Source of the DNA: a bacterium
GTDB lineage: Bacteria > Patescibacteriota > Minisyncoccia > Phycocordibacterales > UBA10002
DNA length: 26,465 nt
Assembly (NCBI GenBank): GCA_030648695.1
Contig: JAUSHG010000036.1
Coordinates: 1-26,465, forward strand
Reading direction: 5' to 3'
In this document: positions 16,761 through 24,590 of the stretch, piece by piece
Position numbering within the stretch: the first letter of the stretch is position 1
Layout: each line of letters begins with the position of its first letter
Notes under the pieces: model-generated
Database searches by the model: none
Told to the model about the DNA's origin: nothing
What the model saw: only the letters and a program-made list of their open reading frames with translations
Made by a program: the position numbers and the translations under genes

Positions 16761-16850
16761 TCCGAATGTTCCGAATATCCGAATGGTTACGAATGCAGTC
16801 CTTCTTATTCGCAGGTATTCGTATATTCGTAGAGATTCGTAATTCGTATT
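16750..16850. repeat. Empty inverted-arm element (CGAAT family) between yidC and jag
   Basis: A ccgaat array (16750-16795) and an attcgt array (16807-16850); the yidC stop lies in the first arm and the jag ATG follows the second. Confidence 0.85.
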
Positions 16851-17308: not shown

Positions 17309-17325
17309 TGGTTAGGAGGAGCTCG

Positions 17326-17752
17326 TAGCTTCTTAGCTGATTAGCTTTTTAGGGAAGAAATCATCTTGTTAAGCATTCGCATCACTTCAAGAAGCAAGCT
17401 GTCAATTTTTTGCAAATCTAAACCCTTTCCCCAAGGCAAGCGACGTACAATTTCAAGCTGGGTTTCCAGTTCAGCTCCGGAACCGTAAGCAATTAATAGG
17501 AACTGACAAAACTCCTTTTTTCCTCCGCGACGCCTTCCTTCTGCAATGTTAGAGGGGATAGAAACTGAGGCGCGTTTCATTTGCGACGAAAGTCCGTACA
17601 GTTCACTTTTCGGAAATTGCTCAGTAAGGGCATATAATTCAATGACGGCGTCTATACCTTTCTGCCACACGATTAATTCTTTATATGAATGTATTTCCAT
17701 CACGGTTTTTTAATTTCCCTAATAAGCTAAAAAGCTACCAGCTAATAAGCTA
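17326..17752 (-). mobile_element. Filled inverted-arm element A (AGCT family) carrying a four-helix-bundle gene
   Basis: Arms 17326-17352 and 17727-17752 are near-perfect inverses. Mobility is inferred, not shown. Confidence 0.6.
17341..17700 (-). CDS. Four-helix-bundle protein (23S rRNA IVS-encoded / Avd-like family)
   Basis: SYKELIVWQK, FPKSELYGLSSQMKRASVSIPSNIAEG, AYGSGAELETQL. Confidence 0.92.
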   Translation of the reverse strand: MEIHSYKELIVWQKGIDAVIELYALTEQFPKSELYGLSSQMKRASVSIPSNIAEGRRRGGKKEFCQFLLIAYGSGAELETQLEIVRRLPWGKGLDLQKIDSLLLEVMRMLNKMISSLKS

Positions 17753-21014: not shown

Positions 21015-21139
21015 CTCCCTTTCCTAAAGGGAGCATCCGCCCAACTTTTTCTGAAAAGTGAGGCAGGGAGGGATTTCTAAATCCTCCGCTCCGACTTGAG
21101 TCGGAGCTCCTCCTTTCCGCCAGCTGGCGGAAAGGAGGA
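21015..21139. repeat. Composite cluster of nested palindromes
   Basis: ctcccttt-cct-aaagggag; actttt-tctg-aaaagt; ggattt-ct-aaatcc; gctccgac-ttga-gtcggagc; perfect 32-nt palindrome at 21108-21139. Confidence 0.85.
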
Positions 21140-21164: not shown

Positions 21165-21620
21165 CTACGCCGAAGGGCCTTTCGGAGGGGTTCGCCCTTT
21201 TGATGCTACGGTCTGCACCGCCCGCTCTATTTTCCCGCCGATAAGAGGAACACCTCGAAGTGCGGAAGACCCGTCATTGATAACCCACGCATAGGCAATG
21301 TCAAATGTCCATGCGGGAAATACCCCGCCCGTTCCGGCATCTACTGCAGTAGCACCCAGAACACTAAGGGTTAAACGCCAATCCAGCATCCCTTTCATAA
21401 AGAAGAGAAAATAGAGAGCTCCACCCACTGCGAGGTCAACAACAGTGTTAATAGGCAAGCCGATTCCAGTAGCCCCCACTCCCATTTGGACGAGGTCAAG
21501 GAAGATGGCGGCAAGAAAGAGCATGTACCAGCTTCCGGGTGAAAGTTTTGGTTCGGGTTTCCGTGGCGGCGGAGGAAGCGGTCCGCGCGGTCTGTTTTGT
21601 TGTGAGGGTTGAGGAGACAT
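21165..21620 (-). CDS. Hypothetical membrane protein
   Basis: Pro-rich N-terminus followed by several hydrophobic segments; lies in the operon directly after the VirB4-like gene. Confidence 0.75.
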   Translation of the reverse strand: MSPQPSQQNRPRGPLPPPPRKPEPKLSPGSWYMLFLAAIFLDLVQMGVGATGIGLPINTVVDLAVGGALYFLFFMKGMLDWRLTLSVLGATAVDAGTGGVFPAWTFDIAYAWVINDGSSALRGVPLIGGKIERAVQTVASKGRTPPKGPSA

Positions 21621-21693
21621 AGCTGGAAGCTTATTAGCTGGTAGCTTTTTAGCTTTTTAGAAATTTCCTAACAAGCTAATCAGCTACAAGCTA
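21620..21693. repeat. Empty AGCT-family element (cargo-less counterpart of elements A and B)
   Basis: agcttattagctggtagctttttagctttttag-aaattt-cctaacaagctaatcagctacaagcta. Confidence 0.9.
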
Positions 21694-23511
21694 TTGGTTG
21701 CCTTCGGCTGCTTTCAGCTCTGCCTTCGCCGCTTTGATGGCGAGCAACTGCGAGGGGTCGGAGGTGATAATTTGGTCTTCGGTGTAGGAGGCGATAACTT
21801 TGATTGCCACGTGTTTGAGACCTACAAAGAAGAGCCCCTCTCCCACATCGGACTCAAGAAGCAGAAATTTTTCTTCGTCCGTGAGATTGAAAATCTGCTG
21901 GAGACGGTCTACGACCGTTGGCGATTGTTTGAGAAGTATCTGCATGGAGGAGTTGGTGAGAATGGGAAGCCCGTAGGGGGATTTGAGGAAGTCGTCCACG
22001 TCCTGTGTAATCGTGGCAAGACCGAAATAATATTTGCGGCCGCGTTTGGCGAGCCCGAGCAGGAAGGAGGCCGTATCTTCGCTCTTCATGAGCCACCACG
22101 CCTCGTCAATCACCATGAGGCGCTTTTTGAGCTCCCGCCGGATAGCGTTCCAGATAAAGTGCGTGATGAGGTACATGGCTGCGGGCTTGAGCTCATCTTC
22201 CATGTCGCGGAGGGAAAATACAATCAAATTGGCATTGATATCAATATTTGAGGGTTGGTTGATGAATCCCGCCCATGTTCCGCGTGTGTATTTGGACAGG
22301 CGGGTAACGAGCGACTCCCCTCCCCGCATGCCGGCGAGTACCAGTTCAAAGTCGGAGAGAAGCGGCGGCGGAATCTTTGCAAAATCAGAATCGGCGGTAA
22401 TGTCTTTGAGTGCGTAGGTTTCTGTTATAGCGCGGTCAATAATCGCATCTTCTTCGGGAGACAGTCCTCCGAGCATAATGCGGAAAAGCCCGACCAGATT
22501 GATGATGTTTGAGCGCAGGACGTCGGTGGGCGACTCATCTTCGCGCGGAGTCGGAAGTTCAAAGGGGTTGATGTGGTGGGATGAGTTGAGTGAAATGTTG
22601 AAGTATTTACCGCCTACGGCTTCGGCCAGATATTCATACTCGCGTTCGGGGTCAAGCACGATAACGTCAGTGCCAAACATGAGTGAGCGGAGAATCTCCA
22701 GCTTCATCATGTAGGATTTACCCGCGCCCGACTTGGCGAACACCACGGAATTAAAGTTTTCAAGCGAAAAGCGGTCAAAGAGAACGAGGGAAGCATTGTG
22801 CCGGTTGATGCCGTAGAGCACCCCTTTGTTTGAGGTCAGGTCAAAGGAAACAAACGGAAAGACACTTGAGAGGGGCGAGGAGTTGAGTTTGGTATGCACC
22901 AGAAGTTCGTCGTTTCCGAGGGGCATGGTACTCCTAAAGCCCTGTTCCTGCTGGAAGAGCGCGGGTTTGAGAAGCACGAGCTTGGCATCCAAAATGCCGC
23001 GCACCTCGGTTTCCACCTTTTCAAGCTCGGTTTCGTTGTCGGCGTAAATCGTAACGTACATTCCCACTTCAAATATCTTTTCATTGGCCTGCATGAGGTC
23101 ATCGCGCAGTTTTTCCAAATCCTGATACGCAGTATCGAGCGCAGGGTCGCGCACGATGCCCTTGTGTTCGCGTTCAATCATCTGGCTTTGTACCTCTGCA
23201 ACCTTCTTCTGGAATTTACGCAGGACTTTGCCGGTATCAAGCGGATGAATGAAGATGGAAATATCAAACACTTTGTCCAGATTGATGACCGGAGCAAACC
23301 AGCCCTCCGTGAGGTAGCGCGGGTAGGAAATGACGAAAAAGGTGCGGGTTATTTTTCCGCTCACATTGAGCGACTTCGGCGTTACCTTAAGCGCAGCAGG
23401 CGCAATAACATCCTGCAGTTCAAGGGCGCCGGATTGGTAAATCTGCTCGGGCAAAAAGTCCGAGATGTCATCCTGCTTCTTTTTTGGTTTTAAAAAATCC
23501 AATATGCCCAT
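21691..23511 (-). CDS. VirB4/TraE-like ATPase
   Basis: Walker A AKSGAGKS, VLDPEREY, INPF, Walker B MVIDEAW, KRGRKY, TQDV. Confidence 0.92.
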   Translation of the reverse strand: MGILDFLKPKKKQDDISDFLPEQIYQSGALELQDVIAPAALKVTPKSLNVSGKITRTFFVISYPRYLTEGWFAPVINLDKVFDISIFIHPLDTGKVLRKFQKKVAEVQSQMIEREHKGIVRDPALDTAYQDLEKLRDDLMQANEKIFEVGMYVTIYADNETELEKVETEVRGILDAKLVLLKPALFQQEQGFRSTMPLGNDELLVHTKLNSSPLSSVFPFVSFDLTSNKGVLYGINRHNASLVLFDRFSLENFNSVVFAKSGAGKSYMMKLEILRSLMFGTDVIVLDPEREYEYLAEAVGGKYFNISLNSSHHINPFELPTPREDESPTDVLRSNIINLVGLFRIMLGGLSPEEDAIIDRAITETYALKDITADSDFAKIPPPLLSDFELVLAGMRGGESLVTRLSKYTRGTWAGFINQPSNIDINANLIVFSLRDMEDELKPAAMYLITHFIWNAIRRELKKRLMVIDEAWWLMKSEDTASFLLGLAKRGRKYYFGLATITQDVDDFLKSPYGLPILTNSSMQILLKQSPTVVDRLQQIFNLTDEEKFLLLESDVGEGLFFVGLKHVAIKVIASYTEDQIITSDPSQLLAIKAAKAELKAAEGNQ

Positions 23512-23946
23512 AGCTTGTAGCTTCTTAGCTGGTTAGCTTTTTAGGGAAGAAATCATTTTGTTAAGCATCCGCATCACTTCAAGAAGCAAACTATCAATCT
23601 TCCGAAAATCTAAATCTCTTCCCCAAGGCAGACGACGAACGATTTCGAGCTGCGTTTCTAGTTCTGCACCCGAACCATAGGCAATTAGCAAGAACTGACA
23701 GAATTCCTTTTTACCTCCGCGTCGCCTTCCCTCCGCAATGTTTGAGGGAATAGATACGATGGCACGTTTCATCTGGGATGCAAGTCCGTACAACTCACTT
23801 TTGGGAAATTGTTCAGCAAGAGCATATAGTTCAATTACACCTTCTATACCCTTCTGCCATACGATTAACTCTTTATACGAGTGTATTTCCATAACAATTT
23901 TCTTTATTCTTTCCTAATAAGCTAAAAAGCTACCAGCTAAGAAGCT
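23511..23946 (-). mobile_element. Filled inverted-arm element B (AGCT family) carrying a four-helix-bundle gene
   Basis: Arms 23519-23544 and 23922-23946 form a 25-bp stem with one bulged base. Mobility is inferred. Confidence 0.6.
23533..23892 (-). CDS. Four-helix-bundle protein, paralog of 17341-17700 (110 of 119 aa identical)
   Basis: Direct alignment of the two translations shows 9 substitutions. Confidence 0.92.
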   Translation of the reverse strand: MEIHSYKELIVWQKGIEGVIELYALAEQFPKSELYGLASQMKRAIVSIPSNIAEGRRRGGKKEFCQFLLIAYGSGAELETQLEIVRRLPWGRDLDFRKIDSLLLEVMRMLNKMISSLKS

Positions 23947-24590
23947 GTTACTGGGTGTTCGGTTTCCCCGGGATTAAACAATTTGTAAAACAACTCAACC
24001 ACCTCTTCGGTGCCGAGCTGTGCCACGCGCACGCCGGTGCGCACGAGCCCCTGCTCCACCACCGACACCCTCTGTTCAAGCTGAATCTTGTGTTCCTCAA
24101 ACCCCCTGTTCCCGCTTCCCTCCGGAGCCGATTGTTTCCCCGGAAGCATCCGGCTCAATTGCGCGCCGATTTTTCCCCCGCTTTCCGAAACCTGCAAAAT
24201 GGCCGGTGTGTAGGGTACCACTACGAAAAAGAGCTTGTTCATGATGTTGGTGTTCTCGGTGAACTTCCGGATAAATCCGATATATTCCTGCGTCTGGATT
24301 TTGAGCAGTTCATTGGTCTGTTTTCCAAGCCGCTCCTGCAGAAACTCCAAATAGGGTTTGACATCAAACCTCCGTGATTCCACGACAATCTGCACCGAGA
24401 AATCCAGCGCGTTTAAAAAACTCTGGAACTGCGCAATGATGGCCTGCTGGTTCTCTTCGGACTTGAGTGCAAAGTTGATGGAGGAGGCCATGAGTACAGC
24501 CCGAAGACCGCCGTCTTTGAGGATGACGATGCCGTCCCGAATTTCCCTTATTTTGACGAAATCCTGCGATGCTTTAGCTTTTATTGGCAT
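23937..24590 (-). CDS. Conserved VirB4-associated protein (typical partner between PrgI and the ATPase)
   Basis: SQDFVKIREIRDGIVILKDG, SSINFALKSEENQQAII, FQSFLNALDFSVQI; operon position. Confidence 0.75.
   Translation of the reverse strand: MPIKAKASQDFVKIREIRDGIVILKDGGLRAVLMASSINFALKSEENQQAIIAQFQSFLNALDFSVQIVVESRRFDVKPYLEFLQERLGKQTNELLKIQTQEYIGFIRKFTENTNIMNKLFFVVVPYTPAILQVSESGGKIGAQLSRMLPGKQSAPEGSGNRGFEEHKIQLEQRVSVVEQGLVRTGVRVAQLGTEEVVELFYKLFNPGETEHPVTAS

Follow-up and report, generated by a model that had tools for sequence, protein, structure and literature searches.

The hairpin between virB4 and the following gene

The window, by which we mean the whole analysed stretch of 26,465 nt (contig JAUSHG010000036.1, designated C42), is part of a genome assembly of 584 kb in 91 contigs with an estimated completeness of ~89% (the source genome, G000). 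The nearest PF05635 relatives and the origin of the reads indicate that G000 is a Patescibacteria (CPR) bacterium from groundwater. The window carries dnaA, dnaN, yidC, jag, polA, tsaE, tyrS and a class A PBP gene, and a T4SS-like operon with PrgI and VirB4. Within 6.6 kb of this one operon there are three elements that have arms of the same family (Table 1). Two of them, A and B, enclose a cargo gene which matches PF05635 (23S rRNA IVS-protein) at 119 and 114 bits, respectively, and also TIGR02436. The third is a hairpin that encloses no gene and is the main subject of this report.

Table 1. Coordinates of the hairpin, its parts and the adjacent or related features (positions within the window)
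Feature	Position	Strand	Remarks
Element A: PF05635 gene within AGCT arms	17317-17752; gene 17341-17703	-	same arm family as the gene-less hairpin
ORF following virB4, 151 aa	21165-21620	-	no Pfam match
ATG of the 151-aa ORF	21618-21620	-	abuts the last AGCT of the hairpin
Gene-less hairpin, the entire 70-nt gap from virB4 to the next ORF	21621-21690	-	two inverted arrays of TTAGCT-K-N-T(T) units, short centre
mRNA-3' arm, ~6 units	21621-21660	-	contains the 28-nt identity with the arm of A
Centre AAATTT, palindromic	21661-21666	.	loop of the predicted hairpin (sequence and predicted fold)
mRNA-5' arm, ~4 units	21667-21693	-	likeness to the 3' arm of A only at family background
Stop codon TAG of virB4	21691-21693	-	doubles as the initial TAG of repeat unit 1 in the mRNA-5' arm (sequence reading)
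virB4, gene for VirB4-like ATPase, upstream of the hairpin	21691-23511	-	TraG P-loop, AAA_10 and TraC_F_IV matches
Element B: PF05635 gene within AGCT arms	23509-23946; gene 23533-23892	-	between the VirB4 N-terminal-like ORF and virB4

An earlier note on this DNA had stated that the hairpin extends exactly from the stop codon of virB4 to the next ATG, and the coordinates confirm this. No Shine-Dalgarno-like motif is present before the ATG of the 151-aa ORF; across the genome, Shine-Dalgarno-like 5-mers are found upstream of ~7% of the called starts, and upstream of 1% of the starts that come after hairpins.

The predicted fold is an interrupted stem of ~24 bp, composed of four helices of 5-7 bp with internal loops of 1-2 nt between them, and the last two units of the mRNA-3' arm stay unpaired immediately before the ATG. 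On the sense strand the predicted RNA fold has -29.6 kcal/mol (z = -5.3), which none of 200 shuffles equalled, and on the antisense strand -28.1 kcal/mol (z = -2.9). For DNA folds of the same hairpin the z-scores are -5.0 and -4.2. A terminator scan found no terminator-like site at 21621-21690, and an intrinsic terminator, that is a G+C-rich stem followed by a T run, was rejected, as on the mRNA it is AAUAAGCUUCCAGCU-AUG that comes after the stem. An Rfam search of the whole window gave no family match.

Relationship to elements A and B

The 28-nt identity reported by the earlier note is genuine: positions 21628-21655 are the exact reverse complement of 17724-17751, and a repeat finder delimits arms of 33 nt with 97% complementarity (17719-17751 and 21628-21660). 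The note had read the hairpin as a copy of A and B that is inverted and has no cargo, which amounts to a direct derivative of one of them, turned round and without any of the sequence that had separated its arm ends. We consider such a descent highly improbable, even though the three elements lie close together in the same operon and the hairpin aligns better with the joined arms of A when inverted than when direct (score 53 vs 37). For B, the two scores are 48 inverted and 43 direct. The claimed inversion thus depends on how much better a near-palindrome aligns in one direction than in the other, and this margin is modest; AGCT copies read alike on both strands, so that their orientation is defined by the free positions alone.

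The identity with A is explained by the restricted vocabulary of the repeat unit. In the AGCT family of G000, 45 arms have at least three AGCT cores each, corresponding to ~25 gene-less hairpins on 19 contigs. The unit of this family, T-TAGCT-K-N-T(T), measures 7-8 nt, and an arm has 4 or 5 units. As only ~1.5 positions per unit are free, matches to the arm of A that are just as good exist on other contigs, over 28 and 26 bases for the arms on C29 and C82. Of 990 pairs of AGCT arms, 11 have 25 or more identical bases in common, and the longest identity of any two arms is 28 nt. One pair with three shared consecutive spacers was observed, where shuffling of spacers among the arms predicts 0.45, and no spacer order is common to any two AGCT hairpins.

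The second arm, described in the note as a close variant of the 3' arm of A, has a run of ~14 identical bases (counted by eye), which is background given a pairwise mode of 12-14. Two further facts speak against derivation from A or B: a TAGCT hairpin is present at the same junction in three congeners, and A and B, being each other's closest relatives, look like the result of a duplication within this lineage. The hairpin is a real and typical gene-less member of its family, and the wording of the note over-reads it.

The two arms of one AGCT hairpin match each other no better than they match the arms of different hairpins (median score 17 vs 19). The stem therefore results from the cores and not from compensated spacers, and there is no compensatory signal.

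Periodic tracts and cargo genes in the source genome

In G000, self-similarity at lag 7 was detected in 174 tracts, compared with 0-38 tracts at the other lags tested (4-11). When a periodic tract is defined as a 4-mer that recurs four or more times at a spacing of 6-9 nt, the genome has 239 of them, compared with ~3 in shuffles, and 153 of the 407 intergenic gaps of 20-260 nt contain at least one. Their cores include AATT, AACT, AGCT, TCAA, ATTG, GTTA and CGAA. Many of the arm families have cores that are palindromic tetramers (AATT, AGCT, TTAA).

All seven PF05635 genes of G000, and its one PF13366/GxxExxY gene, are situated between periodic inverted arms, and the arms around these eight cargo genes represent at least six core families. 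The earlier note had proposed a defined cargo boundary. This holds insofar as the cargo lies between the inner arm ends TTAGG(G) and (C)CCTAA; the boundary is not sharp at 'tcc(c)ta', since the ORFs of A and B enter the 3' arm by 12 nt and stop there.

Independence of orientation, on which the note had based its case for mobility, is not supported. Each of the eight cargo genes is co-oriented with its upstream gene, and at 73 loci from many phyla the neighbours are on the strand of the cargo in 48 of 56 cases upstream and in 46 of 48 cases downstream. Hairpin folding, with G-U wobble included, has no significant strand asymmetry (sense 51 vs antisense 39, p = 0.45), and loop composition shows none either (A 156 vs T 134). 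G-U wobble and strand asymmetry were considered as a sign of an RNA-level role and proved neutral and uninformative.

Alternative states of two junctions in related genomes

The virB4 gene was located in 58 of 61 related genomes, and the junctions on either side of it differ among relatives. At the junction with the upstream 217-aa ORF (up217), which is the site of B, tight, empty, PDDEXK_3-filled, nested-PF05635 and AGCT+PF05635 states alternate. Six genomes are tight (TAA-n(2-8)-ATG), and three have an empty hairpin of 113-116 nt, with arms of the TACCAAT/ACGAAT type in G006 and G011 and of the ACGAAT type in G014. A PDDEXK_3 gene within TACCAAT-type arms is present in four genomes, and a PF05635 gene within AGCT arms, namely element B, in G000. 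The most complex allele is that of G005 (L010:912-1501), where outer TACCAAT-type arms enclose an inner PF05635 gene (43 bits) with its own TCCGAAA arms; in the sister genome G017, a PDDEXK_3 gene lies between outer arms of the same type. Empty and filled alleles at this junction have TACCAAT-type arms in common.

Directly after virB4, a periodic hairpin occurs in all 10 members of the subclade of G000. It belongs to at least six core families, TAGCT (in G000, G002, G003 and G010), TAGGC, GGGAC/GTAAC, TGAAT, TACCAAT and TCGAA. Within the sister subclade, G011 is alone in having a hairpin at this place, and in the near-identical G018, G006, G012 and G019 the genes are adjacent or overlap. A filled allele after virB4, which would be the counterpart expected from the earlier note, did not come to light: PF05635 is absent from this position in 60 relatives and PDDEXK_3 from 19 loci. 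PF05635 genes adjoin virB4 in several other genera, and among the listed coordinates none is just downstream of it. Several PF05635 matches (in G004, G015, G020, G023 and G038) have an internal stop codon, as is expected if cargo decays inside the arms.

The TAGCT-type hairpins at the junction after virB4 in three congeners could reflect old vertical inheritance instead of insertion, though they align poorly; those of G000, G002 and G003 have 57% column identity, too low to separate orthology from re-insertion or for covariation to be counted. The proposal that the hairpins are units at the DNA level is supported by the tight, empty, filled and nested junctions beside virB4, together with a gene-less hairpin in the 23S rRNA of a congener (see below). 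The comparisons show that hairpins have been gained, lost, replaced and nested as DNA.

An alternative is that the hairpin is a regulatory element of the host which evolved in place by heptamer slippage, does not move, and is kept for translational coupling, mRNA processing or mRNA stability within the operon. Such an origin would suit the exact fit from stop to start, the rarity of Shine-Dalgarno-like motifs and the absence of a transposition signature, and also the fact that G002, G003 and G010 have TAGCT-type hairpins at this junction. It does not suit the finding that very close relatives have unrelated core families or nothing at all at this junction. The same architecture is also met in 23S rRNA and around horizontally shared genes of many phyla, the cassette of G005 is nested, and the strands show no asymmetry, so that we regard a host-evolved hairpin as rather unlikely.

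A link to 23S rRNA and the PF05635 family

The 23S rRNA gene of the congener G002 (L021:4491-4571) contains a gene-less AAGTT/ACTTT heptamer hairpin. It is located in a hairpin loop at Rfam model position ~583, which in our view corresponds to the helix-25 IVS site. The 23S regions of G016 (L024) and G013 (L027) likewise contain periodic hairpins; in the G000 assembly its own 23S rRNA gene was not found. We know of no origin or function established for rRNA intervening sequences and the small 'S23p' genes since about 1990. According to PMC4990558, the IVS in the 23S rRNA of Coxiella is a selfish element in which a 28-bp stem and heptameric repeats surround the S23p ORF, and RNase III excises it from the rRNA. 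Inserts with a 23S_rRNA_IVP gene have also been reported from CPR rRNA, with the function of the protein given as unknown (PMC11270868).

Inverted flanks (score 30 or more) were found at 46 of 73 usable PF05635 loci from many phyla and at none of the displaced controls, and at 38 of the 73 loci both flanks are periodic. Arms and cargo are inherited together: the TAGNN core of the arms tracks the PF05635 protein tree with 23 changes, compared with 33.8 in shuffles (0 of 200 as low), and one TAGAA clade of this tree spans three CPR phyla.

Agreement between arm core and PF05635 phylogeny is also what would be seen if the arms were arrays of putative protein-binding sites, where the cores matter and not the duplex, and where the binder might be a pentameric PF05635 protein. 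Several properties of the arms fit this explanation: the cores are invariant, the spacers are free and uncompensated between arms, and there are 4-5 units per arm, while a Xanthomonas homologue is a homopentameric ring according to work cited in PMC4990558. However, G006 and G011 have empty hairpins and no PF05635 match, GxxExxY cassettes have the same layout around a protein of unrelated fold, and co-transfer of gene and arms produces the correlation without any binding. In our opinion it is improbable that the arms are to be explained in this way.

Mobility and metagenome data

For the heptamer hairpins we found no mobilising enzyme, no target-site duplication and no identical recent copy, and a comparison of filled with tight junctions did not reveal a discernible target-site duplication. 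A reverse-transcribed unit, which the earlier note had offered as a second possibility, is not supported, as the sole reverse transcriptase, a small RVT_1 protein, is encoded in unrelated surroundings, next to a UPF0150-like gene and ORFs that have no annotation. G000 has two Y1_Tnp (RAYT-like) genes (C19:3353-4034, L033, and C84:334-1051, L032), each flanked by its own non-heptamer palindromes. A RAYT was rejected as the mobiliser of the heptamer hairpins, as these palindromes are unrelated to them.

The palindromes at C19, doublets of AAGGTTCAACCTT / AAGGTTGAACCTT, exist in ~14 copies in G000 and represent a REPIN-like system apart from the heptamer hairpins. A further cluster of G+C-rich palindromes lies in the window at 21015-21139, between the 151-aa ORF and the following gene, and resembles neither the heptamer hairpins nor the palindromes at C19 and C84.

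Heterogeneity between filled and empty states at the hairpin site was not seen in Logan contigs, which break inside the arms; a strain that is ~96% identical has both arms at this site in metagenome contigs. Among the sequencing runs in which the locus was found, none is an RNA run. Apparent 'joints' (e.g. from 17352 to ~23910, with 1-37 nt between) were dismissed as cross-mapping of other family members, one of them being the hairpin on C83. Arm sequences reach a depth of up to 1500x in groundwater metagenomes and have many different flanks there. A 33-mer of ATTCGTA-type units at 16816-16848 of the window has a depth of ~1500 in one groundwater metagenome and ~970 in another, and its many unrelated flanks indicate that this arm family is common to many organisms in those waters.

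Comparison with known elements

The hairpins are reminiscent of the 23S rRNA IVS of Coxiella, Leptospira and Salmonella, which have long terminal inverted repeats, a stem of ~25-28 bp and heptameric direct repeats in the arms. The hairpin at 21621-21690 likewise has a long stem formed by terminal inverted repeats (~20 bp or more in rRNA-type IVS) and heptameric arm repeats. The PF05635 gene in the loop is optional in both, being absent from this hairpin and present in A and B. Unlike an rRNA IVS, the hairpin is not located in a 23S hairpin loop (helix 9, 25 or 45); it lies between two protein genes in an mRNA, overlaps a stop codon and has a stem that is interrupted every 5-7 bp; its excision by RNase III would be assumed by analogy.

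With MITEs and the REP/REPIN-RAYT systems the hairpins share that they are short, palindromic, non-coding repeats, many of which lie in intergenic DNA, that few relatives bear a gene, and that presence or absence is polymorphic between related genomes. They differ from these elements in that near-identical copies, a target-site duplication and a cognate transposase were not found for heptamer hairpins. Unlike MITEs, they are not present as many near-identical copies of a master, and no arm identity is longer than 28 nt. A REP/REPIN-RAYT system, in which the RAYT gene is flanked by the dispersed repeat, was rejected because the genes on C19 and C84 have non-heptamer palindromes.

STRR are the heptamer tandem repeats of cyanobacteria. 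Comparable TAACTGA repeats of the Beggiatoaceae form direct arrays, with one inverted case reported (PMC4679880). The arrays described here agree with both in their period of 7 and their mostly intergenic location as direct tandem units (7-8 nt, 4-6 per arm). They also overlap upstream stop codons, end beside start codons and contain stops in all three frames. Unlike the TAACTGA repeats, they are paired and inverted, form hairpins and are able to enclose a gene.

A model for the GxxExxY cassettes may be seen in the Ssn GIY-YIG nucleases, a small nuclease family tied to a many-copy dispersed short repeat, as set out in PMC11893778. The fold of GxxExxY and the repeats are different from those of Ssn as presented there, and nuclease activity and repeat recognition by GxxExxY would be putative properties, assumed by analogy.

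Proposed origin and significance

We favour, with moderate confidence, an interpretation where the hairpin at 21621-21690 belongs, as a copy without a gene, to a family of IVS-like stem-loops that are inserted, lost or replaced as DNA, and where it is transcribed as part of an operon. Each element of this family is built of two arrays in inverted orientation; an array has four to six units of 7-8 nt, in which a core (here TTAGCT) is conserved and ~1.5 positions are free. Its targets would be very short stop-to-start gaps in operons and also hairpin loops of 23S rRNA. A minority carry in the loop a gene for a PF05635 four-helix-bundle protein or a GxxExxY nuclease-like protein, and gene-less elements would then relate to gene-bearing ones as MITEs do to full elements.

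The hairpin would be transcribed within the T4SS-like operon. Its first unit provides the stop codon of virB4, a TAG every 7-8 nt shuts all three frames, and the interrupted stem of ~24 bp would bring the stop codon to within ~14 nt of the next ATG, so that the insert may be tolerated by the host. The stem would be a plausible substrate for RNase III, by analogy with the same architecture in the 23S rRNA of Coxiella. From the anatomy of the element, the RNase III gene encoded by G000, the rarity of Shine-Dalgarno-like motifs and the Coxiella precedent, we infer that the hairpin probably folds in the transcript, is cleaved by RNase III and couples stop to start. Cassette proteins may have a role in spreading the elements.

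More speculatively, and with little probability in our estimation, the heptamer arrays might be putative reading platforms for a ring-shaped PF05635 protein, with one core per subunit, four to five units in each arm and spacers left free, and the gene-less hairpins orphan sites which the few gene-bearing cassettes process, protect or move in trans. If this were true, it would be the first function for the 'IVS protein' family and would connect the intervening sequences of rRNA with operon-junction hairpins and with the heptamer repeats of bacterial genomes.

Under the favoured interpretation of IVS-like inserts, an architecture hitherto associated with rRNA occupies the spaces that separate operon genes in a reduced bacterium from groundwater. 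New are the allele series at two junctions within one CPR genus, the nested cassette of G005, the gene-less copy in the 23S rRNA of a congener and the absence of arm-to-arm compensation in the AGCT family. With tight, empty, filled and nested alleles available in a single genus, together with the gene-less 23S copy, it becomes possible to test what moves these elements or maintains them. The hairpin at 21621-21690 is a clean example of the gene-less state and little beyond that. For annotators, stop-to-start hairpins of this kind are best treated as inserts, and neither as terminators nor as CRISPR-like arrays.

The VirB4 reading frames

The 217-aa ORF upstream of B (23937-24590) resembles the N-terminal part of VirB4-type ATPases and of TrsD/TraD proteins, so that B separates two halves of a gene that is single in some other systems. 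The 217-aa ORF and virB4 are two distinct ORFs in every relative examined. In three congeners (G001:C1:64619-68404, G013:C6:11789-15574 and G015:C21:3701-7204), VirB4 is encoded by one open frame of ~1190-1280 aa with a large in-frame insert near residue 270, which could be an intein.
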